64,000 nt of DNA from the NCBI GenBank assembly GCA_042562495.1, contig JBHPMC010000003.1:20752-84751 (forward strand), read 5' to 3'. Source of the DNA: Candidatus Margulisiibacteriota bacterium. Lineage in GTDB: Bacteria > Margulisbacteria > Termititenacia > CAZZFK01. Position numbers and translations under genes: made by a program. Shown one piece after another: positions 5,934-44,505 of the stretch. The stretch's first letter is position 1; every line of letters begins with the position of its first letter. The notes beneath the pieces are model-generated. The model worked only from the letters and a program-made list of their open reading frames with translations. It had not been told where the DNA came from and did no database searches.

Positions 5934-6010
5934 TGGCGGGGCCGACGAGACTCGAACTCGCGACCTCCTGCGTGACAGGCAGGCGTTCTAACCAACTGAA
6001 CTACGGCCCC
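5934..6010 (-). tRNA. tRNA-Asp (anticodon GTC), CCA encoded
   Basis: The reverse complement folds by hand as GGGGCCG-TA-GTTC-AGTTGGTTA-GAAC-G-CCTGC-CTGTCAC-GCAGG-AGGTC-GCGAG-TTCGAGT-CTCGT-CGGCCCC-G-CCA (77 nt). The cloverleaf is canonical with a GTC anticodon. Confidence 0.9.
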
Positions 6011-10702: not shown

Positions 10703-12598
10703 ATGTTAAAGAAGTTAAAATTCTTTCTTCTAGTTTTCCTGCTTTTAGGATTAACGATCACTCAAGTAAATGCATTTACCAATGGTGGCTATGTTGACGG
10801 ACAAACTCCTGGTGATTGCTATCTAACTTTTGGGATCAGTTCCTTTGTAAGTAGTAATACCGTTAATGTAAATACGATCCGGATAGATAGTGTTATATCA
10901 GACCGGGTCTATGTTTCAACAAATATGTCCAATATCCCGGTAAGTGTATCAGTAACCAATACCGGCGAGATCACAGCTACCTTTAATTTGAATTTGAGTA
11001 TATTTAACAGTACTTTAGGAACAGCCGCAGGTGGTTTTAATGTCGCGGGTAGTGGAACATTTACTTTAGCTCCTGGAACAACCTCAATATATTTATTTAC
11101 TGTTAATCCAGTTGGACCGCTTACGCCTACTTTCCCAGTAATAGTAGATGCAGTTGCTGCTGCGCCTGGCCCCTGGGGGCCGTTAGGCGATGATAATTGG
11201 TGGATTGCGATCGACGGTTCTTCAGTAACTGGTGCGGTCAGTCCGTGGTTGTGGGATACCAGAAATTTGCCGGCACCTATATCGATCCTGGTCACGCCAA
11301 ATATTTCTCAAGGATATAATCCAACTGAGCTGCAAGTTACTTTCAGCCGAGCTATGGATGATACAAAAGTAGCGAATTTTGATGCAGTAAGTTCTGATGG
11401 GACAGTAATGGCCTCCTTCGCAGGTAATTGGATTTCAGCTGCTACTACTTTAAGCTGGGTGGGTACGGTTGATACTACAACTTGGCCAGATGGCTTATAT
11501 CATGTCTCAGGCGATAGCGCCGTAGATTCTATGGGCATAACCATGAACCAAGATCCTTTTATTTTAGCTTACACTTTCGAAATAGACCGTTTAACGCCGA
11601 CAGTTAACTTATATCATAATCCTACTGCAAATCCGGGCTTTATTTTCCCGGTCACATTAGTTGCGGTTGATTTTGATGTAATACCTTTAGCTCCGGATCT
11701 TTGGGCGGAATTTTTATTAGATACTGGATTGACCACTTCTGTTCAAGTAACGGGCTGGGCTTCGGCAGGGGGACAAGGGATCACCTGGTCTGGAACTGTG
11801 GCGGTACCTATAAATGCTACACAGAATTCTATAGCAACGTTTAATAATCTTTCTGTTACAGATAATGCAGGATTATTTTCCAATGTTATAAATTCTGGTG
11901 CTACTTTTAATATAGGCGCAGGCGGGCCATATATTACAAATCTAACCTTTGATGGATTAGTAGTAATCAACGGGGATGTTATAGATCCTTTGCCTCAAAT
12001 ACGCTTCTTTATAGTTGATGGTGGAAGTTCTAGCGGCACACCGGGTATTGCCACAGCAAGTATTCGGATCACTATGAACGGTACATTGCTTGTTTCGGGC
12101 AATGCTTTAACTCAAGTAGGGACAACTCCATTTCGTACATATGAATGTATCTACAATATACCCAATGATCTTCCGGAAGGCACATATACTTTTGAGTTCG
12201 GGGCAAGTGATAGTGATGGTATCGCAGCGGTACCAGTTGTTGTCGTTGTGCGTGTTGTAGGAGGAGGCGTTGATCTTATACGCCAGCCTATAAACTGGAC
12301 AAATCCTTTCTCGCCAAATGGGGATGGAGTAGAAGATATTACTTATATAATTTATGAATTAACCAGATCTACTCCAGTAAGACTATATATCTTTAATATG
12401 GATGGAGAGATCGTCTGGAGAAAAGATATTGATGAAGGTCAGGAAGGTGGTCATGCCGGTTACAATGCAGTGGTTTGGGATGGATTTACTAGTTTCGGGG
12501 ATGATCTGCCTAATGGTGTATATATTGCACACGTCATCGTAAATGACAGAGGTACAAGAAAATCGCTTGGTAGGGCGAGAATAGTTATCTTGAAGTAA
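10703..12598 (+). CDS. Secreted surface protein (631 aa) with CARDB/Ig-like modules and a C-terminal FlgD-Ig/T9SS-CTD-like domain (cargo 1)
   Basis: Signal peptide MLKKLKFFLLVFLLLGLTITQVNA. Thr/Asn/Val-rich beta-sandwich-like sequence. The C-terminus carries the shared CTD. Confidence 0.75.
   Translation: MLKKLKFFLLVFLLLGLTITQVNAFTNGGYVDGQTPGDCYLTFGISSFVSSNTVNVNTIRIDSVISDRVYVSTNMSNIPVSVSVTNTGEITATFNLNLSIFNSTLGTAAGGFNVAGSGTFTLAPGTTSIYLFTVNPVGPLTPTFPVIVDAVAAAPGPWGPLGDDNWWIAIDGSSVTGAVSPWLWDTRNLPAPISILVTPNISQGYNPTELQVTFSRAMDDTKVANFDAVSSDGTVMASFAGNWISAATTLSWVGTVDTTTWPDGLYHVSGDSAVDSMGITMNQDPFILAYTFEIDRLTPTVNLYHNPTANPGFIFPVTLVAVDFDVIPLAPDLWAEFLLDTGLTTSVQVTGWASAGGQGITWSGTVAVPINATQNSIATFNNLSVTDNAGLFSNVINSGATFNIGAGGPYITNLTFDGLVVINGDVIDPLPQIRFFIVDGGSSSGTPGIATASIRITMNGTLLVSGNALTQVGTTPFRTYECIYNIPNDLPEGTYTFEFGASDSDGIAAVPVVVVVRVVGGGVDLIRQPINWTNPFSPNGDGVEDITYIIYELTRSTPVRLYIFNMDGEIVWRKDIDEGQEGGHAGYNAVVWDGFTSFGDDLPNGVYIAHVIVNDRGTRKSLGRARIVILK
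12287..12595 (+). other. CTD copy 1 (FlgD-Ig / T9SS type-A CTD-like sorting domain)
   Basis: PINWTNPFSPNGDGVEDITYIIYEL...VRLYIFNMDGEIVW...GYNAVVWDG...PNGVYIAHVIV...RARIVILK*. Confidence 0.65.
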
Positions 12599-12632
12599 GG
12601 TTATACCTGTGTGTTGGGGGGACAGGGTAAGA

Positions 12633-15509
12633 ATGAATAAGCGTTTCTTATTATTGCTCATTTTAGTGGGGGTACTATTGCTACCTGCTTTGGCTACAGC
12701 TGAAGTTGGTGCGAGTGATCCTTCCAGATTAAGCGTTGGTGCGCGACCATTAGGCATGGGCCGTATGTTCATTCCTGTAGCCAATGATGCCAGCGCAGTA
12801 TTTATGAATCCCGCAGGTATGCCTCAAGCAAAAGAACTCCAATTCATGACCATGGGGTCGCAAGTTGTCTGGGCAGTAGATTATCAGACCATAGGTTTTG
12901 TTCTGCCCGTTGGGAAATGGGGTGCTTTAGGTTTAGGTTATGCCGGTCGTAATGTTCCGGATATTGCTTTGTTTTCTGCTTCGGCTTCGATCAATAACCG
13001 CGTAGATAGAAGAGCAGCTGATTATGGATCATTCTCTGACAGTGCCTTATTGCTGAGTTGGGCCAGGCGTTTTGACCTATTCGGGCTAAAACGCGTAGGC
13101 TTGGGAGGAAGTTTTAAGTTCTTTCAGAAAAACGGGACCGGGTCATCAGCATTAGATGATGCTAATGCCACAGGTACTAATTTGGATCTGGGTGTGCATT
13201 GGAATTGGAAAGATGATATTAATTTTGCTTTCACAGGGCAAAATGTGTTGCGGCCATCAGATAAATCCGGGACCGGTGTCCTGATCTGGGATACAGGTGA
13301 GCGAGAGTATTTTGATTCTATATATAAGGTAGGCGTGAGCAATAGGTTTTTTGAGCGCAGAGTACTGGCCGGTATAGAATATGAAAAGAACGGAAGCCAG
13401 CCTAATTATCCCGGCATCGGTCATATAGGTGTAGAGTGGCATCCAATAAATTCTTTATATGTACGAGGTGGTATAGATCAGGCATTTGCTATGCCCGATG
13501 TGGATGCTAATTCTCGATACGATATGCATAATAATGTAACTTTAGGTCTGGGCTTATTGGTTTCTGGATGGCGATTTGATTATGCCTACCATTTATTAAA
13601 TGACATTCCGAATTTAACTACACACTTTATATCTATTTCACTTGTTGGTGATGATGAGCTGGCGCCTATGGAGCCTCCGGAAGTTGAGGTGGCAGTAACC
13701 TCAGATATTCTGGAAGTGTTTACGCCAGAAGACAAGACCATCACGCACTCTTCCTCAATTCTTATTTCAGGAAGAGTTAGGGATCGCCAGAACGTGCGTA
13801 TCAATGGTGAAGATTTCCCTGTGGATGAAGAAGGTGGTTTTGCCACTATCGGTCAATTAGGTATCGGCAGAAATGATGTTATCGTTTCTGTTGAAAAATA
13901 TCCGGTTAAGATCTTAAGAAGGGTATTGCGCTTAGCTTCATTTGTTGATGTGACAAAACAACCGTATAAAGATCCGATCGAATATTTAGCTACGCTTGGT
14001 TTTGTTGGAGAAGATTATGATGGCTTCTTTAAGCCCGATCGTTATGTGACCCGGCAAGAAGCGGCCAGTATGCTGGTCAAAATGCGTAATATTTCCTTGC
14101 CTGTCACAATGCGTGGGATCTGGGAAGATATTGATCTTGCTGCCAGCCAGGGCTTGATCGTTGGTTTCCCTGATGGTTTGTTCCGACCAGCAGAAAAATT
14201 GACCAGAGCTCAATTGGCAGTTATTTTGGCGCGTTTTGAGAACTTGCCGCTACCAAGTAAGACCACGTTGCCTTTAGCCCAAAGATATCTTGCTCAAGAG
14301 CACTGGGCTGCAGGGGCCGTGCAAGCTTTAGTGAATACTGGCTTATACAATTCAGAGGAGTTCAGCCCGCTATCCGGTCCGGTCACTAAGCAGGAATTGG
14401 TAATGGCGTTTTATAAGACCAGTTATGTCCAACGCAGAGTGAATAATATGCTCAATTTCATTGATGAACCGATCACGCCGACCATTCCTAAGAGGGCCAA
14501 TTTATTTATGCGCATATCACAGCCGGTCGATAGTGATGAAAAGCAGATATTTGAGCAGATCATGACCGGGAAGAAAGTGGTAGTGGAAGAGACGGTCGTT
14601 GAATCAGTCGGGAAGTTGACGCCTGAAGCCCCAGCATCAGATATAGATATTTATCAAATGATCGTTGCTAAGAAGGCGATCACCGATGTTGCAAAAGGTT
14701 CTGTAAAAGCACCACTGATGACCTTAATAAAGCCTATCGATAAAACAATAACTTATAAAAATATTGTTGTGGCCCAGGGTTCGGTGAAGAATGCTTCAAA
14801 ATTGTTGATCGATAATCAATCCATATACTTAAAACCTGGCGGTAAGTTCTATAAGAAAATCAAATTAAGTAAATTCGGGAAAAGAAAAATAGAGTTTAAG
14901 GCTACGAATAAAAGCGGAGGAACCTTGAGGAAAACGGTCAGAGTGCTTTATCTGCCAACAGTTAATGATATTGTCGAAGGTTCTTATAAAAAGACTGTTT
15001 CAGGCTTGGTTGCCTTAGGGTATTTAAAATTGGACAGTAAGAATAATTATGATCCTGCCAAGGATATGACCAGGGGGGAGTGGGCCTCTCTTCTATTTAA
15101 AGCCAAAGGGCTTGCACCTGTTGTCCTAAAATATAAAGATGTGCCGGCAACTTATCCATATGCCAAGAGGGTCGGCGCTGTAGCTAAAGCAGGTTATCTG
15201 CCTCCGGTTAGCCCGACACTCTATAAACCAAATGATCCATTAAGCCGAGCACGGGCCGGGATCAGTTTGGCTAAGCTGGAAGGATTAAAAGTGGAACAAT
15301 ATGCAGGTAAGACCGGGTTTAGTGATGTTTCAGTCAAACAGGATTATGCTAAATATTTAGCAGCTGCTAAAGCAGCAGGTATTCTCAAAGGTGAAACCTA
15401 TAAACCAATGAATAATTTAACCAAATTATCGGCCGCGCAACTTATTGCTGGGACTTCAAAAACAAGACAAAAACTGGCCGATCTATATGATTGGAATAAA
15501 GGTTACTAG
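12633..15509 (+). CDS. FadL/PorV-like OM beta-barrel fused to two triplets of SLH domains (barrel 1)
   Basis: Start chosen at MNKRFLLLLILVGVLLLPALATA (the track GTG at 12609 adds 8 aa). Hatch motif VGARPLGMGRMFIPVANDASAVFMNPAGM. The barrel ends with HFISISL (~13645) followed by an acidic linker. SLH-like repeats include FVDVTKQPYKDPIEYLATLGFVG...VTRQEAASMLVKM, WEDIDLAASQGLIVGFPDGLFRPAEKLTRAQLAVILAR and FSDVSVKQDYAKYLAAAKAAGILKG, among others (~13941..14430 and ~14962..15470). Confidence 0.7.
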   Translation: MNKRFLLLLILVGVLLLPALATAEVGASDPSRLSVGARPLGMGRMFIPVANDASAVFMNPAGMPQAKELQFMTMGSQVVWAVDYQTIGFVLPVGKWGALGLGYAGRNVPDIALFSASASINNRVDRRAADYGSFSDSALLLSWARRFDLFGLKRVGLGGSFKFFQKNGTGSSALDDANATGTNLDLGVHWNWKDDINFAFTGQNVLRPSDKSGTGVLIWDTGEREYFDSIYKVGVSNRFFERRVLAGIEYEKNGSQPNYPGIGHIGVEWHPINSLYVRGGIDQAFAMPDVDANSRYDMHNNVTLGLGLLVSGWRFDYAYHLLNDIPNLTTHFISISLVGDDELAPMEPPEVEVAVTSDILEVFTPEDKTITHSSSILISGRVRDRQNVRINGEDFPVDEEGGFATIGQLGIGRNDVIVSVEKYPVKILRRVLRLASFVDVTKQPYKDPIEYLATLGFVGEDYDGFFKPDRYVTRQEAASMLVKMRNISLPVTMRGIWEDIDLAASQGLIVGFPDGLFRPAEKLTRAQLAVILARFENLPLPSKTTLPLAQRYLAQEHWAAGAVQALVNTGLYNSEEFSPLSGPVTKQELVMAFYKTSYVQRRVNNMLNFIDEPITPTIPKRANLFMRISQPVDSDEKQIFEQIMTGKKVVVEETVVESVGKLTPEAPASDIDIYQMIVAKKAITDVAKGSVKAPLMTLIKPIDKTITYKNIVVAQGSVKNASKLLIDNQSIYLKPGGKFYKKIKLSKFGKRKIEFKATNKSGGTLRKTVRVLYLPTVNDIVEGSYKKTVSGLVALGYLKLDSKNNYDPAKDMTRGEWASLLFKAKGLAPVVLKYKDVPATYPYAKRVGAVAKAGYLPPVSPTLYKPNDPLSRARAGISLAKLEGLKVEQYAGKTGFSDVSVKQDYAKYLAAAKAAGILKGETYKPMNNLTKLSAAQLIAGTSKTRQKLADLYDWNKGY

Positions 15510-16868
15510 TTATTTGCGGATAACTTTTTTGACCACAGATTTTTCACTACCGTTATAAACAACTCTGGCTTTAAAGAAATAGGTCCCTTTGGGCAGCTCA
15601 GCTTTGAGTTTCCAATCAAAAACTGCAGTATAGGTTTTGTTGGGTTCCAGGGAGACTTTTTTAGCTGAGAAAACCTTAAGTGGTTGCTTCTGATCATCAT
15701 AGATGCTCAAAGCACACTTAATATCTGTAGTTACTTCTCCAGTGTTCTCGAACACAACCTCAGTCTTTACCAAGCCATTGATCTTCTTAACGGTCATCTT
15801 ATTGATGGCAGCATCTTTTTTAAATTCTAATAAAGGTATTTCCTCAACATCAGCTGAAGCAACTTTGAGCTCACCAGGGCTTACCTCTCTTGGCTTTTCT
15901 GCCTCATCGATCTTCTGCTCTTCTTCTAATGGTTCGATGAGATCTTCTTGTTCTTCAAGAAGATAACTAAGGGATAGGAAATGCTTATTATCAACGACTT
16001 CACCTACTGGTTCTGTAGCAAAAGTATAATGCAGCCCGAATTTTTCATAAGCCAGGCTGGTGCCTAAGAATAGGCGCTCCTGATCGTAACCGGCACGGAA
16101 GGTCAGATACTTATTGAAAATAAAACGGCCACCGACCTTTAGCCCCAATCCGCGATCACTGCGCGAATTAACATCAACTGCGAGCAGGAATTGTCTGGTT
16201 ATTTTATGTGATACTCCGATGATGATATTGAACGGTATGGTTTCTATAAGATCGCTATCCGTATCCCAGGCAAGCTGGGGCGGAGTAATATTTTGATAGA
16301 CCAGACCAAGCTGGGTCCGAGAATTCAATCTATAAAATAAACCGGCATCAAATCCTGTGCCTGAAGCGCCGTTATCATAAAGCGATTCCTGGATGTATTT
16401 AAAGTTCAGACCAACTGCTAATTTCTTATCCAGTGCTTTAGCCGCTGAGAAGACGTAGGCATTGCCTTGATAACTAAAGCTCTTGCCAGTTAAGCTTCCT
16501 GCCCCATTTTGATAGGTAGCTTCTTTGATACCATCTACGCGAGTATTTAAAATATTCACTCCAAGAGCGATATCCCAGATCCTTGGATCACGTAACCGGT
16601 TATAGCCTAACTGGAGATAATCAACATCGCCTAAGATCGTCCCCTGCATAGAATTTACTTCGCTACGATTTACATAAGCCAGTACAGCAGGATTCCAATA
16701 ACCCACAGTTCCGTCCTCTGCAAAGGCCACCACTGCAGCGCCCATGCCCAGGGATCGGGCACCCACAGGTCTCATTATAAATGAGCCTGCAGAGGTTGCG
16801 TCTGCAGTGGTAGACCACTGTCCGAGGAGCAGTGTTATTAAAATTAAAATACTAAACAGTTTTCGCAT
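15510..16868 (-). CDS. FadL/PorV-like OM beta-barrel with C-terminal CARDB/CTD-like Ig domain (barrel 2, partner of the 4178-aa protein)
   Basis: Signal peptide MRKLFSILILITLLLGQWSTTADA. Hatch motif VGARSLGMGAAVVAFAEDGTVGYWNPAVL. The barrel ends with KHFLSLSY followed by a Glu-rich linker. Its AGGAG RBS overlaps the stop of the upstream giant gene (9-nt gap). Confidence 0.7.
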   Translation of the reverse strand: MRKLFSILILITLLLGQWSTTADATSAGSFIMRPVGARSLGMGAAVVAFAEDGTVGYWNPAVLAYVNRSEVNSMQGTILGDVDYLQLGYNRLRDPRIWDIALGVNILNTRVDGIKEATYQNGAGSLTGKSFSYQGNAYVFSAAKALDKKLAVGLNFKYIQESLYDNGASGTGFDAGLFYRLNSRTQLGLVYQNITPPQLAWDTDSDLIETIPFNIIIGVSHKITRQFLLAVDVNSRSDRGLGLKVGGRFIFNKYLTFRAGYDQERLFLGTSLAYEKFGLHYTFATEPVGEVVDNKHFLSLSYLLEEQEDLIEPLEEEQKIDEAEKPREVSPGELKVASADVEEIPLLEFKKDAAINKMTVKKINGLVKTEVVFENTGEVTTDIKCALSIYDDQKQPLKVFSAKKVSLEPNKTYTAVFDWKLKAELPKGTYFFKARVVYNGSEKSVVKKVIRK

Positions 16869-16877
16869 CGTTTACTC

Positions 16878-19800
16878 CTATTTCAGTACGGCGATCTTGA
16901 CCCGCTTAACTTTGCGGTTCTCGCCATCTGTTGCAACGATGTAGGCGACATATACTCCGTTGGCCAGGATCTCGCCCCACTGATCCTTGCCATCCCACGC
17001 TATCTCTCCGGAACTGGAATTTACATCTTCTTCGGTCTCCCATATTTTTTGACCACTGATGTCATAAACATAGATCTTGATGTTGGCCTCGTTCCTATTT
17101 ATGTTGTACATGAAATGGATAGAATCGTTATGTAAATTGACCGGATTTGGCGCAACAAAAGTTTGTAAAGCACTTAAGGAAGATTGTACGTTCAAGCCAA
17201 CAACGGCGAACTTGGAGAAATGAGTTGTACTGAATACAAGAGTAGTACCATCAAAACTAATAATGGTTATGCCATCGTTACTCCAACTACTTGTACTGGT
17301 ATTGTAATAATAAATACTGATCTGATTGGCCGGATAATTGAAGCTCATACCTAAGTTCAGGGTTACGATAACCGGATTGGCGAATTGTGGATCTGTAACA
17401 GGATTTAATGCCCCATCCAGCAATTCTAGATAGAACGGAAGTAAAAAGGACATTGCTTCAGTATCGTTCTCTGTCGGCGCCAAGTTGAAGCTAACGTAGG
17501 CCTCATAAGCTACTGCGCCTACTGGTAAAGTTATGTCAGCTGTGACATTTACAGAAGGATCGCCACTGATGAATTGAAATACTTTCTCTACTGTTAACAC
17601 AACTTGGCTGGCAGAAGTAGGGCTGAGATTACCGGCATTGTCGATACAGGTGGCATTGATAGTATTGTAGCCAGGAGATCTCAGGGCAACTTGCAAGGAG
17701 AAGCTTCCTGTAGTGCTGACCGGGCTGGAACCAAGCAATCGTCCGTTATTATAGATGCGTACTGTAGCGCCGGCCTCGGCCGAACCGCTGATTTTGAATA
17801 TACCAATGTTAGTTGTAGCCGGGGCCAGAGGCACTGGCAAACTGGATAATACTGGTGCAGCAGGAGGATAAGTATCCGTTTCGGTGCTGAAGGAGTAGTT
17901 GAGATTAGTAATATTTGGCGGATTACCATAATCTGCTGTTTGTGCTGCGACCTGTACAGTATCGTTATAGTTGAAAGTCTGGGCAGGTGTGAATGTAATA
18001 TTGTAGGTAATAGGTCCTCCAGAGATCACAGTTCCGCCGGCAACAGGAATGCCACCTACGCTGACAGTAACGCCTATTAGTCCTGTTTGGATACCTGTTT
18101 CGTTATCATAGGTTTGCAGAACGATGGTCGTATTTGTAGAGACATTCGTTGCTCCAGAAAGCGGTGAAAGAGCAGAGAGAAAAGGATCGCCATTGTCCTG
18201 GCCGGAAATGAAATTATATTCATCGACCACTGCATTGCCGCTTATATCTGTTGCATTAATAGTTACATATATCGTACTTAAGATGCCGAAATCAGTATCG
18301 TGAGTGAAAGATGCATCGTAGGTTGGGCCACTGCCGACAATATTTAAGACAAGATCACCGGTGATAATCCCCTGGCCGCTGTCCAGAACCTCAATTGTTA
18401 CGGAATCAACTGATACTCCGGTTTCAAGATCAACGATTGAGAAATTGACCGGTGCATCCTGAGCCCCGGCTCCTGATTTTTGCGGATTATGCCCGAATAT
18501 TGTAGGTGACGTTAGATCTTGTTCGGTTATAAAATAGAAATTATCGGTGACCAGATTATCTCTAAGGTCTTTTGCTGATATTGTGACCACCACGGTCTCG
18601 AAATAACCGAGTTCAGGTGTATAAGATACTGTATACTGACCGGCATTGCCGTTTATGTTGAGAGAAGCGCTGACATCAACATTATTGACCTCTAGTATTA
18701 TCGAATCGAGAGAGACGCCGCTTTCTATATCCGTAAGAGTGAAAGACATGTTGGTATCCTGAGCAACATTTGTTGTATCTCTGGTAGGTATTAAGCTGGA
18801 AATGACTGGAGCGTTGGTATCATCTATGGTCTGAAAACTATAAGAGATGCTACCAGGATTACCACCAATGTCTTCAGCGTTAACAGTTAGGTCGATGGTT
18901 TCCAGATATCCAAAATCGTTGGTAACTAATGTAGCAGTATAGCTATTCATGTTGCCGGTGATATCCATGGACGCTGAAAGATCTATACCAGCAACCAATA
19001 TCTGTATGGTATCCAAACTTACGCCTGTTTCAGAATCAGATATGATTAAGCTGATAGGAGTTGTCGGGGAGACACTAGTTGCTCCATTGGTCGGCGATAG
19101 AGAGCTGAATTGAGGAGCTGTCGAATCAGCGTGGATAGTAAATCCATAACTTATGCTTCCCGGATTATCCAAGAGATCATATGCTGAAGCAGTAACAGCT
19201 ACTGTTTCTCCGTAACCAAAATCAACACTTGGTGTATAGCTTACTTGGTAACTACTGGTAGTTCCTGAAATGCTTAGCTCATTGGTTACTTCAAGCTCTT
19301 GGACCCAGAGCCTTATAGAATCTTGGGATACACCGCTGCCGCTATCCTCAATAGTAATGTTTATTGAAGGATTTAAGGTAACATCAACTGCACCAGCTAA
19401 AGGATCTAGGCTATTAAAGGTCGGTGGTGTTGATTCAGGTGGCGCCTGGCCGATTCCGAAGCTGTAGGTCACTGTCTGGCTGTTGGCGGAGACATCCTCA
19501 ACATTGATGGTCACTGGTACAACAGAATTATAATTAAAGGTCGTGACCGGGTTATAAGTGACCAGATAATCACTGCCGGACAAGGTGATCTGGTCAGGGA
19601 CTACTGCTTGAGAGTCCACTTCTAGTTGTAAGGTATCGATGCTGACCCCGGATAATGTGTCGGAGATACGGAAAGCGATAGGCGTATCATTCACATTGCC
19701 CGTGCTATTTTGTGCAGGATATATGTCGCTTATTTCAGGAGGGAAATTATCATCAGCTATCTTTTCATAAGCTCCCATATCATATTGCGCCGTAGCGCCT

Positions 19801-29414: not shown

Positions 29415-29507
29415 TTGGCTCTCCTCGGACAGTTAAAGAGCACCTTTTCCCTTTATGCTACTTTTATGCCCACTTATCGCCATTTTTATACCTATTTTTT
29501 TGGGGAG

Positions 29508-29537
29508 ACTATAAGAAATATATAAAGCCATCCCCAA
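29508..29537 (-). promoter_or_regulatory. Weak candidate promoter for the giant gene
   Basis: On the minus strand: TTGGGG, an 18-nt spacer, then TATAGT, about 95 nt upstream of the ATG. A chance match in AT-rich DNA is quite possible. Confidence 0.2.
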
Positions 29538-29628
29538 CTAGGCTCCTTTTCCTAACTATAATATCGGCTGATCATGTATTGATAATGTATCGATGAAATT
29601 TGGTGTATTTAAAGTATAATATTTGCCT

Positions 29629-31031: not shown

Positions 31032-31044
31032 TATTCAAAATTCC

Positions 31045-31074
31045 TTGACTTTAAGCCAAAAAATACGTTAAAAT
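31045..31074 (+). promoter_or_regulatory. Candidate sigma70-type promoter upstream of merR-family gene / 1864-aa cargo operon
   Basis: TTGACT (31045..31050), an 18-nt spacer, then TAAAAT (31069..31074). Confidence 0.35.
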
Positions 31075-31207
31075 TTGTTAGTTCAACTATCAACTTGCAG
31101 GTTTTTACCCCCATCAAACAAGCAGGATAGAGTTAATTTTTTTGTCTCAAATTTTTTATTGAAGCGTGGTAATGTTTTGCTTTGAAAATTTGGGGAGGGT
31201 ATTTAGT

Positions 31208-31450
31208 ATGAGCAGTAGTAATGGGGGATTACTTAAGGCTGGCGAACTTGCGAAACGCTTTGGCATCCTGACCAGTACGATCCGTTATTATACAAATATT
31301 GGTTTATTACAATCCGATGGGCGATCCCCCGGCGGATATAATCTATATGATTTTATGAAGGCAAAAGGTGCCTTGGATAAAATAAAGCACTTAAAGGATA
31401 AAAGATTTACATTAGATGAAATAAAAGAAAAGCTGTTCATAAAGGGGTAA
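31208..31450 (+). CDS. Short MerR-family HTH transcriptional regulator
   Basis: AGELAKRFGILTSTIRYYTNIGLL HTH motif. ATG 31208 is preceded by GGGGAGGG, so it is preferred to the track GTG at 31166. The gene ends 4 nt before the 1864-aa gene. Confidence 0.8.
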   Translation: MSSSNGGLLKAGELAKRFGILTSTIRYYTNIGLLQSDGRSPGGYNLYDFMKAKGALDKIKHLKDKRFTLDEIKEKLFIKG

Positions 31451-31454
31451 GGTC

Positions 31455-37049: not shown

Positions 37050-37056
37050 AGTAAAT

Positions 37057-38016
37057 ATGAAGAAGAGTTTAGCTATATTGCTAACTCTCCTCTTGTTTGT
37101 TCAACAAGGATGGGGGGCGCTAAAGATCACTGGGGATAGTTCACCAGCAGATATTTCCCGTGTGGGTATCGGCGCCAGACAATTAGCCATGGGCCGGGTA
37201 AGTGTGGGTACTGCAGATGATGCCGGCGGCTGGCTATTAAATCCGGCCGGCTTGGCGGGGATCCGGGCCCCGGAAGTGAATACCATGATGACCAAGCTTG
37301 TTGGGGAGTTTAATTATTATTTCCTTTCCTATGTACAGCCTGCCAAGCAGGATACCTTTGGTGTTAGTTTATTACATGAAAATCCCGGATCTATTCCTCG
37401 CGTAGATAGCTTGGATGTCAATGGTTATCCAGTTGATTCAGGAGATACGATAGCTGCTGGAAGCACTTTGTTATCTGTAGGTTACGGTCGAAAGTGGTCC
37501 AAGAACTTGTATCTGGGAGTGGCGGTCAAACATTTCGTGCAATATTTAGATAATGCACACGGCACCAGTACCGGAGCAGATGTTGGCTTGATCTGGGGCA
37601 CACCTATAAAAGATCTGTCGGTAGGCGCGACTGTGGTAAATGCAGCACAGCAAGGTATTCGCTGGGACACAACGGACAGTACTTTGTATAATCTGCCAAC
37701 ATATTTAAGAGTTGGGCTAGCCTGGGAAGTGCTCAATAAACGTTTGACCTTAGCTATCGATGATGAGATCGGTAATTTTAATCGTTTGAACTTGGGAGCA
37801 GAATACTGGTTCAATAAAAATTTCGCGCTCAGGATGGGGACCTACGGAGAGATCCTTACTTTAGGAGTTGGGCTGCGTCACGGATTTTTTGAATTAGATT
37901 ATGCGTATTCCTATGAGCAGGGGCCAATAACTCAAACAGCTTTTGTTTCGTTGACTTTTGGCAATGCTAGACAAAGTGAGCTGGAACAACCAGAGATATA
38001 TATATTGGAGGAATAA
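37057..38016 (+). CDS. FadL/PorV-like OM beta-barrel, barrel only (barrel 3)
   Basis: 319 aa. Signal peptide MKKSLAILLTLLLFVQQGWG. Hatch motif IGARQLAMGRVSVGTADDAGGWLLNPAGL. Terminal strand AFVSLTF followed by a short acidic tail. Lies 7 nt after the 1864-aa gene. Confidence 0.7.
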   Translation: MKKSLAILLTLLLFVQQGWGALKITGDSSPADISRVGIGARQLAMGRVSVGTADDAGGWLLNPAGLAGIRAPEVNTMMTKLVGEFNYYFLSYVQPAKQDTFGVSLLHENPGSIPRVDSLDVNGYPVDSGDTIAAGSTLLSVGYGRKWSKNLYLGVAVKHFVQYLDNAHGTSTGADVGLIWGTPIKDLSVGATVVNAAQQGIRWDTTDSTLYNLPTYLRVGLAWEVLNKRLTLAIDDEIGNFNRLNLGAEYWFNKNFALRMGTYGEILTLGVGLRHGFFELDYAYSYEQGPITQTAFVSLTFGNARQSELEQPEIYILEE

Positions 38017-38017
38017 T

Positions 38018-40474
38018 ATGGGGGGAAAAATAATCAGGATTTTATGTATTGTTTTGCTGCTGTGTATCTTGCTTAGTGCCTTTTCTTTAGCGCAAAAAAC
38101 TTCTATTAAATATACCAATAGGGATGAGGTCTCTTTTCGCGGCACAGCGGATCCGGAGTCGGAAGTAAAAATATTTGTTAATGGGGAGGAATATACTACT
38201 GTCCAAACTGACGGTGCCGGGAATTGGATCGCCAGAGATGTGCCAATGGATAGTAAGCTCAAGGAGAATATGGTCTATGCCAAGGCATTTGATAATTCCG
38301 GTATGGAAAGCCCTTATTCCAGAAAGATCAAAATAATAGTAGATAAGATACCTCCTAAAGTCACGATAACTGTTGAGCCTAATAAAGTTAAAGGCGGAGA
38401 GCAGGTCCGCTTATCTTTAAAAGCAAATGAAGATGTGAAGAATGCTTCGGTCGCTGCTCCGGATAATAATATCCTGAACCTTTCTTATGATGCTACCAAG
38501 GCTACCTGGGAGGGAGTTTGGGATGTGCCGCTGCGTTTTACGACCGGAGTCTATCAATTCGTTGGTATGGCAACCGATCTGGCGGGAAATATCGGTAAGG
38601 GTAAATCAAATCCGGTGAACATCGATACAGGCGTAGGGCTATCGATAGTTTCGCCAGAGCCCTGGGCTTTAGTATATGAAGATAGAATAACTGTTCAAGG
38701 TATCGCTGAGAATTTACCTTTTGTTGAGCTGAACGATAAACAAGTAATGGTACGTCCGGATAATACTTTTGCCGGCGAGGTTGCTCTGCCCAAGCCCGGG
38801 CACAATATCATTGCTGTGGTCGGCCGTGATGCAGCTAGTGAGGTAAAACGAATAGAGCAGACCATAGTTAAATTAATAACTTTTCCGGATATTCAGACCC
38901 ATTGGGCAAAAAAGGAAATAGAGTTCCTGGCGACATTAGGCTATGTAGAAGCAGGCAATGAAGATGGCTTGTTTCTGCCTGATCAGCCGATCCGGCGTTC
39001 GGAGATGGCCTCGGTAGTAATCAGAGCTAAGAATTATCCGGTCGGTTCTTTTACTAAATCTACGTTCCGGGATATTATGGAGAATCACTGGGCTATGAAT
39101 TATATTGAGACCGGTTATCAGTACGGCATCTTAAAGGGCTATCCCGATCATGAGTTCCATCCCAATACTTATTTAAACAGAGCAGAAGGCGCTACGGTCA
39201 TCACCCGTATGGCAGATTTTCCGTTGCTAACACCAAAACAACCGCCGGCCTTGGATGTTCCTTCAGATCATTGGGCAGCTAAATATATTTATACTTTCCA
39301 GCGTAATGGATTGATACCTCCGCCTTGGAAAGGGAAGAGCAGGTTTTATCCAAAAGTACCCATGAGCCGAGCAGAGTTCGTGGCCGCCCTGGCGCGGACA
39401 CCCCAGGTGAATAGAGCGATAGCACACTTGATCAACCGCAATCCTGAATTTGAAGTAGTAGTTGATGAATATGGTAAGCAGCGGATCGTAAAACAAGGTG
39501 ATGTGGCTTTGCAGCAGGGAAAAATGTATAAAAGTATCGTTGAAGGAGTGGCAGACGAAGAAGGTTCTGCTAATAAACATTTTGTCCAAGTAAAAGTATC
39601 TCCGCAAGAAGTAAGGCCCGGCACAAGTGTGCATATCTCAGTGGCCAGCTGGAGAAAATTAACTTCAGTTATCGCTGTTGCTCCCAACGAAGAAGTGATC
39701 GCTTTAAAATATAACAAGAACATCGATCGGTTTGAGGGTTATTGGAAAGTACCTAATGTAGATCATTTATACGGGAATTATGTAATGAAGGTAAAAGCGG
39801 TAGATTTCAAAGGAGAGGTCTATCGGGTAGATTCAAATAAGTTTGCGATCGTGGCGATCCCGCAGATGATGGTGCCTCAAGAGGCTAAGCCTGAAAAGAG
39901 CATGGCTATCGAGATCCCTGTGGAAGGTTCTTCGGAGATTGTATTTGCAGAATATGCAGAAACAGGTGCCAGCGGGAAGACCTTTGAGGGTATAGCCGAT
40001 GGTACAAAGACTGAAAGTGGTAGCGCATTACAACCAAGCAGTGTTCAGCGAACGGGGTTTGTCACCAGAGCGCAATTCGCTCAATTCTTAGTAGATATCG
40101 GCAAGGTCCCCACTGCTAAAAAAATCAAGTTCGTGGCCAAGGATGTGGGAATAGATCATCCGCAGGCTGCTGCGATCAATGCTTGTTTATTAAAAAATTA
40201 TATGAAATTGGATGCCCAGAAAAAATTTAATCCAAACGGAGCTGTCTCCAGGGCTTTTACAGCCGTAGCACTGACCAGGGCCAAGAACGTGGCTTTGCCC
40301 AGCAAATTGATCAAAGATCCTTTTAAGGATGTATCCAGGAAGTATTGGGCAGCTCCGCATATATATAAGGTAACCAAACTAGGCTGGATGAAACCTGTGA
40401 CAGCAACAATGTTCTATCCGAAAAATAATATCGATCAAAAAGAATTTGAGGCGATCAGAAAGAGGATCAAATAA
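38018..40474 (+). CDS. Secreted SLH-domain protein with Ig-like modules (S-layer/cell-wall-associated protein candidate)
   Basis: Start at MGGKIIRILCIVLLLCILLSAFSLAQ, with a GGAGG RBS and a 1-nt gap after barrel 3. The track start at 37958 is rejected. SLH repeats: FPDIQTHWAKKEIEFLATLGYVEAG...IRRSEMASVVIRA, FRDIMENHWAMNYIETGYQYGILKGYP...LNRAEGATVITRM, LDVPSDHWAAKYIYTFQRNGLI...MSRAEFVAALAR, plus C-terminal FKDVSRKYWAAPHIYKVTKLGWM. Confidence 0.75.
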   Translation: MGGKIIRILCIVLLLCILLSAFSLAQKTSIKYTNRDEVSFRGTADPESEVKIFVNGEEYTTVQTDGAGNWIARDVPMDSKLKENMVYAKAFDNSGMESPYSRKIKIIVDKIPPKVTITVEPNKVKGGEQVRLSLKANEDVKNASVAAPDNNILNLSYDATKATWEGVWDVPLRFTTGVYQFVGMATDLAGNIGKGKSNPVNIDTGVGLSIVSPEPWALVYEDRITVQGIAENLPFVELNDKQVMVRPDNTFAGEVALPKPGHNIIAVVGRDAASEVKRIEQTIVKLITFPDIQTHWAKKEIEFLATLGYVEAGNEDGLFLPDQPIRRSEMASVVIRAKNYPVGSFTKSTFRDIMENHWAMNYIETGYQYGILKGYPDHEFHPNTYLNRAEGATVITRMADFPLLTPKQPPALDVPSDHWAAKYIYTFQRNGLIPPPWKGKSRFYPKVPMSRAEFVAALARTPQVNRAIAHLINRNPEFEVVVDEYGKQRIVKQGDVALQQGKMYKSIVEGVADEEGSANKHFVQVKVSPQEVRPGTSVHISVASWRKLTSVIAVAPNEEVIALKYNKNIDRFEGYWKVPNVDHLYGNYVMKVKAVDFKGEVYRVDSNKFAIVAIPQMMVPQEAKPEKSMAIEIPVEGSSEIVFAEYAETGASGKTFEGIADGTKTESGSALQPSSVQRTGFVTRAQFAQFLVDIGKVPTAKKIKFVAKDVGIDHPQAAAINACLLKNYMKLDAQKKFNPNGAVSRAFTAVALTRAKNVALPSKLIKDPFKDVSRKYWAAPHIYKVTKLGWMKPVTATMFYPKNNIDQKEFEAIRKRIK

Positions 40475-41163
40475 TGAAAAGAAAAATAATATTCATTCTG
40501 GCCATATTGTTCTGTTATATATTTGCGATAGAAACATTTGCTGCGCCAGTTGCGAGTAATCCTCGTTTTGATGGCCGAGCTACGATCGGCGATGATCCAA
40601 TAGCACCTTTGCCCTTGATCACAGTACAGGTCACGGGAGTAAATGTCAGTTTTGATGCGTTTGTGCTCTGGATCGATGGTGCCCAAGTAAGTACCAGTAA
40701 TCCGTATAATTATACTTATGACGGAACTGATTTTAGTTTACAAGTTAGCAGCCGATTAAATAATGGCTGGCACACCTTTACTTTGCGTGCACGTGATGAT
40801 GGCGGGCTGATGATACCTGATTATACTTTTAACGGCTTTGTTGCTGCTCAAGCCCAGGGTATTATCGGAGAGCCTTTAGCAATCCCTAATCCAGCCACAG
40901 ATAATATGCGGATCACTTATAAATTGACCGGAAGCGGTGATGTAGATATCCGGATCTATAATTTGAACAGTGAATTGGTCTGGGAGCAGGAGCTAAGTGC
41001 AGGGCAGACCGGAGCTCAGGTCGGTTATAACGAAGTGGTTTGGGACCTGCGTTCAGGTTTTGGCGAGGAGTGTCCGAATGGCGCATATCTTTGTGTTATT
41101 TTAAAAGAAGAGGATGAAAGCCCTGTGGCTATGGAGAAAGTAAAGCTGTTCATCTTGAGATAA
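40474..41163 (+). CDS. Small (229 aa) secreted protein: one Ig-like domain plus CTD (cargo 4, minimal cargo)
   Basis: TAATG overlap with the upstream gene. Signal peptide MKRKIIFILAILFCYIFAIETFA. CTD at 40867..41160. Confidence 0.7.
   Translation: MKRKIIFILAILFCYIFAIETFAAPVASNPRFDGRATIGDDPIAPLPLITVQVTGVNVSFDAFVLWIDGAQVSTSNPYNYTYDGTDFSLQVSSRLNNGWHTFTLRARDDGGLMIPDYTFNGFVAAQAQGIIGEPLAIPNPATDNMRITYKLTGSGDVDIRIYNLNSELVWEQELSAGQTGAQVGYNEVVWDLRSGFGEECPNGAYLCVILKEEDESPVAMEKVKLFILR
40867..41160 (+). other. CTD copy 4
   Basis: GEPLAIPNPATDNMRITYKL...VDIRIYNLNSELVW...GYNEVVWDLRS...PNGAYLCVILK...EKVKLFILR*. Confidence 0.6.
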
Positions 41164-41181
41164 AGTATTTGGGGGGCGCAA

Positions 41182-44100
41182 TTGTATAAGAAACTTTTAG
41201 TTTTATTATTAATATTATTAGCGACATCAGCCTCTGCTGCTGATGAACGTATCCTGGCCGATGATACAGGATACTTGGGAACAAGTGCCAAGACCTTGGG
41301 GATGGGCCGAGCATTTGTCGCGGTCGCAGATGATGTGAACGCCGTTTTTTATAATCCAGCCGGACTAGGCCAAGTGGATCGTTTTCAGTTAATGACAATG
41401 TCAGAGACATCTTTGCTTATGGGCGAGATGCAGTATTCAACCGCAGCCTTGGCAATTCCGATCGGCCTGGGCACCTTAGGTTTTGGTGTGATATCCAAAC
41501 GTTTCGATGGCATACCCTTATTATCTGCTGATGAAGTGGATGGTAATGGGCGTCCTGATGCAAGCTTAGTTGATTACGGAAACTATGAGGATAATACGAC
41601 ACTAATAGCCTATGGGCTGGATTTAGGCACCGTATCACAATTCAAATTCTTCCGTAATCTTTCACTAGGTTTTACTATCAAAATGTACAGCAAGATCGGT
41701 CGCGGGGAGAACGATCTGCTCGATGATGCGATCGCCCAAGGTTATGATCTGGACCTTGGTTTGCGTAGTAATTTAACAGAAGATTTTTCTTTGGGTTTTA
41801 ATCTGCGTAACGCCATGACCTATCGAGATCGCTATGGCGCCGGGGCATTACGTTGGCAGACCGGAGAGCGAGAATCGATCATGGGTATCTACACTTTTGG
41901 CGGTGCTTTCAAAATGTATGAAGATCAATTGATATTGGCAGCAGATGTTGATGTATTTGAGCGCAATGCTAAGCCATCCTTGGGTCATTTCGGTCTGCAA
42001 TGGGCCGTGGGAGAGCATATGTTCATCAGGACAGGTTGGGACCAGCTGCCGTTACCCGCTACAAATAAGAGTGCCGAACGAGTGGCAAATATCATGCCGG
42101 CCGGTATTGGCTTGGAATATCTTGGATTTGCGATCGATTATGCATATTATCCCGCACATAATATAGAAGGAACTGCTACTCACTTCCTTTCATTATCTTT
42201 CCTTGGTCTTCCGGATACTAAAACGGATGAAGAAGAGGAGGAGGTAACACCATCGGTACCAACGCTAGTGAGCTTTGATAAATTGCCAAAACAAATGATC
42301 GTTTATAAAGAGAGCTTGATCATAGAAGGTAAGGCCCAGGGCTACGAGAAAATGACGATCGGCGGACAGGAAATTGATATAAAAGAAGAAAGCTTTAGCA
42401 CTAAAGTGCCATTAAAAATAGGTGTAAATGAAATCGTAATTTCAGCAAAGGATAGGGAGATCAAAAGAAAAGTACTGCGGTTGCCTACAGTGAGCGAGGG
42501 GAAAGAGCAGGCTTTAGTAAATAATCTGGAATATATATTGATCCAACCGAATTTTGCATCTTTTTATAAACCACATGACAAGCTTACCAGAAGACAAATG
42601 GCAGATTGGATAGCCAGGGGGAAAGGCATGAAAATGCCGGAAGAACTAAAGGGTATCTTTACGGAGATGGATCTGCTGGCCCTAAAAGGTTATATGGATG
42701 AAAGTGCCGATGGCATGTTCAATCCTGATGAGCTGATGACCAGAGGTAAATTTGCCCTGGCTTTAGCTTATTTGGAAGGCAGACAGGATGCCTTTATAGG
42801 TATTCCTATCGAGAATAGACAAGATTATGCTGTGGAACTATTGGAAAGTACTGGGCAATTCAAAAGCACAGATTTTCTGCCCATGGATGAAGTGATCAAC
42901 CTGCACGATGCCTCAAAGCTGATGGGCAGGACCAGTATGATCGATCTCAAGATCAAGAACTTGACCAGTGGATTCGTAGTGCCGCGCGCTATTTTAACAC
43001 CACAAGTATTGATCCCGGGAGAAATGCTGAAAGTACAGGTGCTGGTACCAATGGATGTTGCTGTTAAAAAGCTTGGCGTCCGTGTTGAAAAGAATAAGCG
43101 CATAAGAATAAAAAAGATATCCGATCGTTTGTTCGAAGGAGAATGGAAGATACCTGCCGGACGCAAGGCTGGATATTATCCGCTGGTAGTATTGATCGAG
43201 GATGTTTTTGGTAACAAAGTAACAGTAAAAGATTATTATGAGATACGTAAGACAACAACAAGTGAGCCGGCGGCGGTCAGTAGAGGTGTGGCTAGGGCTG
43301 GTGTTCTGATAAATGTTGGTCCCAGGCCGCTTTTGCCGGGAAAGAAGATGAATATCAAAGTTGGATTAACTGGTGGGCAGACCGCAGATAAAGTGATCTT
43401 GGAATTAAAGAACGGTAAGCAGCTCGAATTGCAGGTCAATGATAGTGGTCTGTGGGAGGGCACACATGCTTGGTCTAGAAGGGAAGCTCATGGTTCACAG
43501 CTCGGCAAATTCTATATACATCGTTATGCCAAAGAACCTGTGATCAAGGAATATGTATTTACTTTAGGGCGTGGACCACAGACTTTGTCTGCAGCAGTGG
43601 TCGTGCCTGAAGTTAGTGCCAAGGCCGAGGCGCCTAAGCCGGCGCTGTTGTCCAGCATATCGGGTATACATGTTTTGACCAAGATAAAAGCACAATATGT
43701 AGAAGCGCAGACCTATATATATGCAGCTTCAGGATTTACCGAAGGTGCAGAGAAGATCCAAAGCGTTACGGTAGTTCTGCCGACCAATAAACAAGTTGCT
43801 TTAAAAAAGAGCTCAACTAACCTTTGGCAGGGAGAAGTTATCCTGCCAGCCAAACTCAAAGATCTGCAAGAAGCCAAGTTCTTTATAAAAGATATTTCGG
43901 GCAGGACCATGGTCCAGGATAAAGCTTTTGTGATCCAGCAGGGCGGTTCTCAGCAAAAGATCACACTAACGATCCCGGTCTCAGCGCCTGCCGTACAGCC
44001 TTTGGCAAAAGTTAAAGTGCCAATAGTACCTGTTGTTCCAGTAATAAAACCGGCTGTTAAAGCTGCGCCGGTAAAAGCAGCTAGTGTGCCGGTCGTTAAA

Positions 44101-44505
44101 TCCGCGACAAAAGCAGCACCGGTTAAAACTCCAGAAAAAGAGGTCAGCATTAAAACAACACCAGCTGAACCGGAAGTTTCTATTGAAGTTTTAGCTGCTG
44201 AGAAATTATTACAGAAGCCGAGCAGGTCTAAGCTCAACTATGTACCGGATATTATATTAGGACCCGATAATTTAAGGGCAGGTGGGATCTTATATATTAA
44301 GACCAGTATGAACACTTCGGATGGTATAGACAAGATGACAGCAACATTTGCAGATGGAAATACTCCGCTTAAGAACGTCGGCGGTGAATGGCGCGGTCAG
44401 TACAAGTTGGCCAAAGGTACCAAGGGGCTGTCCAAAATGAAATTATATATTAAAGATACGGATGGTAAGGTCTGGGCTTTTGAAAAATTGTTCCAGGTCA
44501 ACTAA
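41182..44505 (+). CDS. FadL/PorV-like OM beta-barrel fused to degenerate SLH-like repeats, four Ig-like W-x-G modules and a Pro/Ala/Val/Lys-rich linker (barrel 4)
   Basis: TTG start 5 nt after a GGGGGG run. Signal peptide MYKKLLVLLLILLATSASA. Hatch motif TSAKTLGMGRAFVAVADDVNAVFYNPAGL. The barrel ends with THFLSLSF (~42205) followed by DEEEEEV. SLH-like repeats: KLTRRQMADWIARGKG and FTEMDLLALKGYMDESADGMFNPDELMTRGKFALALAYL. Confidence 0.7.
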   Translation: MYKKLLVLLLILLATSASAADERILADDTGYLGTSAKTLGMGRAFVAVADDVNAVFYNPAGLGQVDRFQLMTMSETSLLMGEMQYSTAALAIPIGLGTLGFGVISKRFDGIPLLSADEVDGNGRPDASLVDYGNYEDNTTLIAYGLDLGTVSQFKFFRNLSLGFTIKMYSKIGRGENDLLDDAIAQGYDLDLGLRSNLTEDFSLGFNLRNAMTYRDRYGAGALRWQTGERESIMGIYTFGGAFKMYEDQLILAADVDVFERNAKPSLGHFGLQWAVGEHMFIRTGWDQLPLPATNKSAERVANIMPAGIGLEYLGFAIDYAYYPAHNIEGTATHFLSLSFLGLPDTKTDEEEEEVTPSVPTLVSFDKLPKQMIVYKESLIIEGKAQGYEKMTIGGQEIDIKEESFSTKVPLKIGVNEIVISAKDREIKRKVLRLPTVSEGKEQALVNNLEYILIQPNFASFYKPHDKLTRRQMADWIARGKGMKMPEELKGIFTEMDLLALKGYMDESADGMFNPDELMTRGKFALALAYLEGRQDAFIGIPIENRQDYAVELLESTGQFKSTDFLPMDEVINLHDASKLMGRTSMIDLKIKNLTSGFVVPRAILTPQVLIPGEMLKVQVLVPMDVAVKKLGVRVEKNKRIRIKKISDRLFEGEWKIPAGRKAGYYPLVVLIEDVFGNKVTVKDYYEIRKTTTSEPAAVSRGVARAGVLINVGPRPLLPGKKMNIKVGLTGGQTADKVILELKNGKQLELQVNDSGLWEGTHAWSRREAHGSQLGKFYIHRYAKEPVIKEYVFTLGRGPQTLSAAVVVPEVSAKAEAPKPALLSSISGIHVLTKIKAQYVEAQTYIYAASGFTEGAEKIQSVTVVLPTNKQVALKKSSTNLWQGEVILPAKLKDLQEAKFFIKDISGRTMVQDKAFVIQQGGSQQKITLTIPVSAPAVQPLAKVKVPIVPVVPVIKPAVKAAPVKAASVPVVKSATKAAPVKTPEKEVSIKTTPAEPEVSIEVLAAEKLLQKPSRSKLNYVPDIILGPDNLRAGGILYIKTSMNTSDGIDKMTATFADGNTPLKNVGGEWRGQYKLAKGTKGLSKMKLYIKDTDGKVWAFEKLFQVN

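Follow-up and report, generated by a model that had tools for sequence, protein, structure and literature searches.

A 64-kb stretch of DNA (the window) from a metagenome-assembled genome (MAG) of Candidatus Margulisiibacteriota was found to contain four open reading frames (ORFs) that share a C-terminal domain (CTD) of about 100 amino acids (aa), each followed on the same strand by the gene of a PorV/PorQ-family beta-barrel. The four pairs (C1-B1 to C4-B4, Table 1) are interpreted, with moderate confidence, as surface proteins with dedicated outer-membrane anchors, in which the CTD of the cargo protein would be held by its own barrel. For three of the four barrels, SLH modules, which bind the cell wall, are either part of the protein (B1, B4) or supplied by the adjacent gene product S3 (B3), and these modules are the most distinctive feature of the pairs.

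A Sec-type signal peptide was identified at the N-terminus of all eight proteins. Proteins with 100% identity to B1 (P0020) and B3 are on record at NCBI from a MAG of Candidatus Margulisiibacteriota. The four CTDs and the four barrels were each made into hidden Markov models (HMMs), and a scan of the six-frame translation of the window with these models returned exactly four of each, with no extra copy. As such a scan is circular for its own members, independent support was taken from curated models. The original prediction had listed the same four pairs, and ORF listing and translation reproduced their coordinates, strands and intergenic gaps; the four hatch motifs of the barrels also read as quoted there. 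Its description of the barrels needs adjustment in three respects. The proposed size of about 320 aa applies to the N-terminal barrel domain (300-345 aa) but not to the complete proteins of 958, 452, 319 and 1107 aa, the barrel end HF[LI]S[LI]S[FYL] does not hold for B3, which ends in AFVSLTF, and the regions past the Glu-rich linker are of importance, as described below for the SLH modules.

Table 1. Paired cargo and barrel genes and the associated genes of the locus. Gap, distance from the cargo gene to the barrel gene that follows it; Ig, immunoglobulin-like.
Feature	Pair	Position	Strand	Length (aa)	Gap (nt)	Description
C1	1	10703-12598	+	631	34	Sec-signal surface protein; CTD at ~12296-12595; Pfam CHU_C and FlgD_ig; NCBIfam match to PorU C-terminal region
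B1	1	12633-15509	+	958		PorV/PorQ-family barrel at aa 1-~345, then acidic linker, Glucodextran_B (Ig) domain and SLH module, followed by a second module of Ig and SLH-like type
B2	2	15510-16868	-	452		PorV/PorQ-family barrel at aa 1-~305, then Glu-rich linker and beta-rich C-terminal domain of ~130 aa
C2	2	16878-29414	-	4178	9	Ig-repeat and beta-helix surface protein; Big_5 (six copies), Big_6, Beta_helix; signal peptide; C-terminal CTD
MerR-type gene		31166-31450	+			Small regulator gene, 4 nt before C3; NCBIfam MerR/ZntR-type matches, E 1e-11
C3	3	31455-37049	+	1864	7	Ig-repeat surface protein; Big_7; weak FlgD_ig at aa 1775-1845; CTD by alignment; orthologues in L001 and L004
B3	3	37057-38016	+	319		Stand-alone PorV/PorQ-family barrel with acidic tail
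S3		38018-40474	+			Separate gene with own signal peptide; SLH (131 bits), Glucodextran_B, Big_13; homologous to B1 aa 360-608
C4	4	40474-41163	+	229	18	Small CTD protein; Por_Secre_tail 23.2 bits, FlgD_ig 18.7 bits; PorU C-terminal match, E 6e-8
B4	4	41182-44505	+	1107		PorV/PorQ-family barrel, Glu-rich linker, degenerate Ig/SLH-like module, Ig-like repeats, Ala/Pro/Val/Lys-rich stretch

Family assignment of barrels and CTDs

The curated NCBIfam model of the PorV family (PorV_fam, NF033709, cutoff 90 bits) was passed by B3 (111.6 bits) and B2 (90.6 bits). Secondary NCBIfam matches of the barrels were to PorQ, PorV and PorV2 (B2 to PorQ with E 1e-18), and the equivalog cutoffs of these three models were reached by none of the four. 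None of the four barrels matched PorP/SprF (PF11751) at E<=0.01 in either Pfam or NCBIfam; weak PorP_SprF matches were seen in some of their distant relatives only. A profile of 20 barrel sequences was compared with the PDB and detected PorV (6h3i_F) with E 3.9e-32, and CymD, TodX and FadL at 1e-4 to 1e-2. AlphaFold modelled B3 with a pLDDT of 81, and the top PDB match of this model in Foldseek was PorV in the SprA/RemA-CTD complex (8gl6_F, E 7e-14, TM 0.70/0.62), with TodX and FadL at about 1e-8. The curated HMM, the PDB profile and the predicted structure concur with the original prediction of PorV/PorQ-like barrels. Judged by sequence and by the predicted model of B3, the four barrels are assigned to the PorV/PorQ family, B1 and B4 with scores below the PorV_fam cutoff; the fold is FadL-like with an N-terminal hatch and resembles PorV more than FadL or TodX. 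This PorV-related family is very large and comprised 50,899 representative clusters at E<=1e-3.

The cargo bodies are of the Ig-repeat and beta-helix type and adhesin-like. At their C-termini, C1 passes the Pfam CHU_C model (35.5 bits, cutoff 27), and C2-C4 give sub-threshold matches to FlgD_ig, CHU_C or Por_Secre_tail (for C2 at aa 4089-4168, FlgD_ig with 24.3 bits and CHU_C with 23.2 bits). An 11-sequence CTD profile compared with the PDB found its best match in the CTD of PorU (6za2_A, residues 1061-1154, E 8e-7), followed by FlgD Ig domains and then by PorZ (5m11, E 0.014). The HMM built from the window CTDs also matches, at 1e-13, the CTD of a Salibacter PorU encoded directly upstream of porV. 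A homologue search with the CTD profile returned four short fragments and nothing more. The Pfam matches and the PorU profile match bear out the predicted T9SS-type nature of the CTDs (T9SS, type IX secretion system), and sequence similarity assigns them to the T9SS/FlgD-Ig CTD superfamily, with the CTDs of PorU and PorZ as nearest relatives. Neither canonical type A nor type B can be assigned to them. The paralogous pairs have diverged, as the CTDs and the barrels are only 24-35% identical among themselves.

Conserved linkage and SLH modules

The genes of the pairs are closely spaced. The stop codon of C2 is overlapped by the AGGAG of B2 (TAGGAG), as had been predicted. The stop codon of B3 is separated by 1 nt from the start of S3, and the S3 stop overlaps the ATG of C4 as TAATG, such that MerR-C3-B3-S3-C4-B4 forms a single tightly packed block. 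The paired genes are probably co-transcribed and partly translationally coupled, and the MerR-type gene is a candidate regulator of the C3-B3-S3-C4-B4 block. A promoter-like site (10/12 matches) lies near this gene at 31045-31074. Scans for promoters and terminators in the window gave counts at chance level and no terminator within the cargo-barrel gaps; the absence of terminators in the gaps is consistent with operons but provides no evidence for them. The genes of B1 (+) and B2 (-) point towards each other and their stop codons abut (TAG at 15507-15509, minus-strand TAA at 15510-15512), which leaves no intergenic room for a terminator.

Related Margulisbacteria-type loci were compared and show that the adjacency is conserved. 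In L001/L008 (63% barrel identity), the MerR-C3-B3-S3-C4-B4 block is kept and the downstream housekeeping genes are also the same. Three pairs, one of them C1/B1-like, are present in L004 (43% barrel identity), one pair is found at the syntenic position in L020 and one pair in L009. The MerR gene occupies the equivalent position in L001 and L004, and orthologues of C4 were detected in L001, L004 and L009. L022 (3708-20013) encodes two CTD proteins (1333 and 765 aa) followed by one barrel-SLH protein, and then a further CTD gene with its barrel-SLH gene. Since two cargo genes precede one barrel-SLH gene in this locus, a barrel can apparently serve more than one cargo. In all ten further CTD genes of the Margulisbacteria-type loci, the barrel gene comes next or after one more CTD gene; together with the window, 14 of 14 CTD genes are linked to a barrel gene, directly or one gene removed. 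This adjacency is far beyond chance. The strict 1:1 pairing of the original prediction thus holds for the window, with four genes of each kind, but not across the relatives, in view of the three cargo genes to two barrel genes of L022 and of orphan barrels in L019 and L021, which are discussed below.

Comparable gene arrangements were detected outside Margulisbacteria. In Salibacter (Bacteroidota), the window models retrieve porU-porV in the same gene order (L017). A conserved triad was observed in Neomarinimicrobiota and one Bacteroidota MAG, in which the genes of a TonB-receptor-like and of a CTD protein stand together with that of a PorV-family barrel. The triad loci are L012 (4825-10981), L013, L014, L015 and L016 (4620-10675); the TonB-dependent-receptor-like protein has ~960 aa and the CTD protein ~760 aa, the CTD is PorU/PorZ-like, and the barrel scores well above the PorV/PorQ-family cutoff and below the PorV and PorQ equivalog cutoffs. 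A CTD-barrel pair is also present on a high-GC (0.66) contig (L005, 1-11521), where a >4500-aa fn3/LTD protein comes first, then a PQQ-beta-propeller protein of 1063 aa that bears a type-A-like CTD, and last a PorV-family barrel of 507 aa, extended at its C-terminus; genes for phosphotransferase system and HPr-kinase proteins adjoin these genes. PorV-family barrels without an adjacent CTD gene were found in an Elusimicrobiota MAG (with a TPR tail) and a Poribacteria MAG.

The SLH modules do not appear in the account of the pairs given by the original prediction. In B1, Glucodextran_B (47 bits) and SLH (106 bits) matches are followed by a second such module. B4 shares homology with B1 along a stretch of 655 aa, which takes in the Ig and SLH region of B1; this region is degenerate in B4 and its SLH and Glucodextran_B matches are weak. 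S3 is presumed to be the periplasmic wall tether for B3, and it is a separate gene in L001 and L004 as well. A frameshifted fusion of B3 and S3 was considered and rejected, since in three genomes the two are separate genes and S3 starts with a signal peptide of its own. A search with B1 yielded 44 protein clusters with a barrel-then-SLH architecture, and all named sources among them are Margulisbacteria. Most of these clusters are of about the size of the orphan genes mentioned above (551-578 aa).

Among distant PorV-family barrels, the C-terminal tails comprise OmpA peptidoglycan-binding, TPR, fn3, SLH and CTD-like domains. Examples of tailed proteins are P0113 (OmpA), P0101, P0132, P0143, P0081 and L010 9956-11251, and include an fn3+DUF4352 tail; in one PorV-family representative, it is the barrel protein that carries a CHU_C-like CTD. 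Barrels inserted by the BAM machinery end in the periplasm. Taken together with the OmpA fusions such as P0113, this rule suggests that the tail past the last barrel strand is periplasmic and directed to the wall.

The window holds ~45 genes, and lpxB (lipid-A disaccharide synthase) is one of them, which suggests an outer membrane with lipopolysaccharide (LPS); the host is probably an LPS diderm. Chromosomal neighbours of the pairs (within 7250-9580; 55041-56177; 5934-6010) include a GH116 beta-glucosidase, a PfkB kinase, lpxB and an ABC-2 transporter, and further neighbours are recN-like, NAD kinase and lactate/malate dehydrogenase-family genes. The sole RNA gene of the window encodes tRNA-Asp. 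No signs of a mobile island were seen among the genes that flank the four pairs, and the identification of the locus as such an island was rejected because relatives keep the locus in synteny with the housekeeping genes that flank it. An 825-aa ORF with ~23 tandem PEAK repeats and no signal peptide (49224-51701, minus strand) gave no Pfam or NCBIfam match. It sits in a low-GC stretch (0.36-0.38) right after an XerC/D-type integrase gene (46677-47564), and its neighbour, a 283-aa ORF (48353-49204), is also without a Pfam or NCBIfam family.

Proposed anchoring and competing explanations

Starting from the observed domain identities, linkage and conservation, the following route can be proposed. 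The adhesin-like cargo with its Sec signal would leave the cytoplasm via Sec. An SprA-type translocon encoded elsewhere, another secretion system and the barrel itself are candidates for the outer-membrane crossing. The similarity of the CTDs to those of PorU and PorZ suggests that the CTD is retained on the cargo rather than cleaved, and the extracellular face of the barrel would bind its cognate CTD non-covalently and hold the cargo at the cell surface, mirroring PorV-PorU, PorQ-PorZ and PorP/SprF with type-B cargo. From the C-terminus of the barrel, an acidic linker and an Ig spacer would lead to the SLH module in B1 and B4, with the SLH module on the separately secreted S3 in the case of B3. 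The SLH modules may bind wall polymer in the periplasm and thereby fix the complex to the cell wall, a role proposed by likeness to PorE, with its OmpA_C-like domain, in the PorP-PorE-cargo complexes of Bacteroidota. A type I or two-partner secretion (TPS) route was rejected, as the cargo proteins have Sec signal peptides and no Omp85 or TPS domain was found in cargo or barrel proteins.

Several observations weigh against the dedicated-anchor interpretation. The contact between CTD and barrel is deduced from homology and gene linkage, and a comparison of CTD and barrel identities across the pairs gave a correlation that stems from orthology alone, with no pair-specific signal of co-evolution; as all paralogous pairs are 24-35% identical, it is uninformative on this point. 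The NCBIfam type-A model TIGR04183 matches C4 alone (17.9 bits, cutoff 23), the type-B models (TIGR04131) gave no match at E<=0.01 among the four cargo proteins, and the sole curated CTD threshold that is passed, by C1, belongs to the type-B model CHU_C. The fold of the C4 CTD was not confirmed by an AlphaFold prediction from four sequences (pLDDT 47.5). Two of the barrels, B1 (52.4 bits, E 5.8e-14) and B4 (60.6 bits, E 1.9e-16), match PorV_fam over the full model length below its cutoff, and B2 has no SLH module and a tail without a Pfam or NCBIfam family match. No translocon for the cargo was found in the window. Finally, orphan barrel-SLH genes without a nearby CTD gene are present in L019 (10001-11737) and L021 (10001-11656), where genes of 551-578 aa adjoin lepA, hemN and hrcA-grpE-dnaK-dnaJ. 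They indicate that barrels of this family also function where no cargo gene is adjacent, and the orphan may represent a housekeeping PorV or serve as a general tether of the outer membrane.

The strongest competing explanation treats the pairs as ordinary T9SS cargo loci, in which a canonical T9SS is encoded elsewhere in the genome and the pairs represent cargo with specialised shuttle or anchor barrels, as in Bacteroidota. The homology of CTDs and barrels to T9SS parts speaks for it, as does the CTD-gene-then-barrel order in T9SS-bearing lineages (the Salibacter porU-porV genes and the Neomarinimicrobiota/Bacteroidota triad), and the orphan barrel-SLH beside lepA could be the housekeeping PorV of such a system. 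However, as the original prediction had stated for porK/L/M/N, sprA and porU, no T9SS core family (SprA/Sov, PorK/L/M/N = GldK/L/M/N, PorU) was found among the genes of the 64-kb window, and none occurs in the precomputed Pfam lists of ~120 kb of related Margulisbacteria-type loci. T9SS is described as exclusive to Bacteroidota or the Fibrobacteres-Chlorobi-Bacteroidetes (FCB) superphylum (PMC12618676, PMC11205867), and a literature search found no paper that links Margulis-, Sagan- or Melainabacteria to it. Typical T9SS genomes also have many unlinked type-A cargo genes, whereas no CTD gene was seen outside the cargo-barrel cluster in the inspected loci. A canonical T9SS elsewhere in the genome is therefore regarded as quite possible, though not as probable, and it would still extend T9SS beyond the FCB superphylum.

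The converse can be advanced with similar caution, namely that Margulisbacteria do without SprA and PorKLMN and that CTD, PorV-like barrel and SLH module form a self-sufficient display unit, in which the CTD serves purely as an address for its cognate, wall-tethered barrel and export proceeds by another route or through the barrel. If this tentative proposal holds, the attachment half of T9SS would exist in Terrabacteria without dependence on the translocon and might be the older of the two, and the unit would represent a second kind of SLH-based connector between outer membrane and wall besides OmpM.

It is considered unlikely that the barrels are general envelope proteins, acting as OmpM-like wall tethers and/or FadL-type channels for hydrophobic compounds, whose adjacency to adhesin genes reflects co-regulation with no binding of the CTD. 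The combination of SLH and beta-barrel does match the operational OmpM definition (bioRxiv 10.1101/2021.05.31.446380), orphan copies stand beside lepA and the dnaK operon without cargo, and this view also agrees with the NPA motif of the hatch and with the similarity to the FadL/TodX fold. Against this stand the linkage of all 14 CTD genes to a barrel gene and the much closer relationship of the barrel to PorV than to FadL/TodX. B2 and B3 moreover have no SLH module of their own, and homologous PorV/PorQ barrels are known CTD binders (PMC12365241).

Export of the cargo by its own barrel (with BAM), with the CTD as targeting signal in a two-partner- or autotransporter-like manner and without an SprA-type translocon, would account for the near 1:1 linkage with translational coupling, for a window without a translocon gene and for a phylum outside the known T9SS range (PMC12618676), but it is very improbable because polypeptide export is not known for 14-stranded FadL/PorV barrels plugged by a hatch, SprA is the pore and PorV the CTD binder in the solved T9SS complex 8GL6, one barrel of L022 comes with two cargo genes, orphan barrels exist, and no Omp85/POTRA or TPS domain was matched in cargo or barrel proteins.

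Comparison with known systems

The original prediction had regarded the arrangement as undescribed, which is contradicted by precedents: type-B cargo with PorP/SprF and PorE (PMC12618676), PorU and PorZ on PorV and PorQ (PMC12365241) and the porU-porV adjacency in Salibacter. Cognate pairing of cargo and barrel is thus known from Bacteroidota. What is new is its occurrence in a phylum on the Terrabacteria side, the use of PorV/PorQ-type instead of PorP/SprF-type barrels for adhesin-like cargo, and the fused or partnered SLH tether. The two partners of CTD/PorV recognition, which like T9SS is held to be a speciality of Bacteroidota or the FCB superphylum, are encountered here as multiplied, conserved gene pairs in a sister phylum of Cyanobacteria, and the barrel is joined to SLH, a wall anchor typical of Terrabacteria. 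The presence of a T9SS core in the genome would mean that the range of the system extends well outside the FCB superphylum; from its absence it would follow that the anchoring of CTDs on barrels can do without the translocon, a point of relevance for the evolutionary assembly of T9SS. The pairs add a second SLH-plus-barrel architecture to the debate on outer-membrane tethering in diderm Terrabacteria, and operational "SLH + barrel" screens may have counted such proteins as OmpM. They also provide a testable rule by which adhesins on the surface of uncultivated Margulisbacteria, and the anchors of these proteins, can be predicted.

A close parallel is found in the Bacteroidota operons of type-B CTD substrates, which require a cognate PorP/SprF shuttle whose gene lies directly downstream, often together with a PorE-like peptidoglycan binder; in F. 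johnsoniae, five such operons add a PorE homologue, giving rise to static wall-anchored complexes (PMC12618676). As in Fjoh_3952-3951-3950 of F. johnsoniae and PG1035-PorP-PorE of P. gingivalis, a cargo gene in the window is followed by its own barrel gene (here after 7-34 nt), a peptidoglycan or wall binder belongs to the operon, and a static wall-anchored complex with retained CTD is proposed. The differences are as follows. The window barrels belong to the PorV/PorQ and not to the PorP/SprF family, the CTD has ~100 aa compared to 150-235 aa for type B, and the wall binder is an SLH module, mostly fused to the barrel, in place of the OmpA_C-like domain of a separate PorE, such that the two binders are functional analogues and not homologues. 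The host is a member of Margulisiibacteriota rather than Bacteroidota, and no T9SS core was found in the window.

PorU and PorZ are anchored via PorV and PorQ, which are known CTD binders (PMC12365241). The window pairs would likewise place a surface protein on a PorV/PorQ-family barrel, and their CTDs are nearest to that of PorU. Unlike PorU and PorZ, the cargo is Ig-repeat and adhesin-like and is neither a C25 sortase nor a carrier of anionic LPS (A-LPS). In contrast to porU-porV, four diverged paralogous pairs are assembled in one locus and SLH tails are found on barrels.

A likeness to two-partner secretion (TpsA/TpsB, type Vb secretion system) had also been suggested and persists as a loose analogy only. 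In both cases a large adhesin gene adjoins the gene of a dedicated outer-membrane barrel. In the window, however, the recognition element is C-terminal and the cargo gene comes first, and no Omp85, POTRA or TPS (haemagglutination activity) domain was matched in the cargo or barrel proteins, so that both the Omp85/POTRA partner and the N-terminal TPS domain are missing.

OmpM/SlpA-type tethers resemble the window barrels in combining SLH and an outer-membrane beta-barrel, either in one protein or in two adjacent genes as in Thermotogae. OmpM/SlpA proteins use a coiled-coil stalk; in its place, the window proteins have acidic and Ig spacers ahead of the SLH module. The order of domains is reversed, with the barrel N-terminal and the SLH module C-terminal, so that the OmpM layout of an N-terminal periplasmic SLH domain and a C-terminal porin-type barrel is not seen in the window barrels. 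These are hatch barrels of the PorV/FadL type and not porins, and they are linked to CTD cargo. The two share a phylogenetic neighbourhood (Cyanobacteria and sister clades including Margulisbacteria): OmpM homologues, defined operationally by their SLH domain plus beta-barrel, have been reported in Margulisbacteria, which are among the cyanobacterial sister clades with reported OmpM tethers (bioRxiv 10.1101/2021.05.31.446380).

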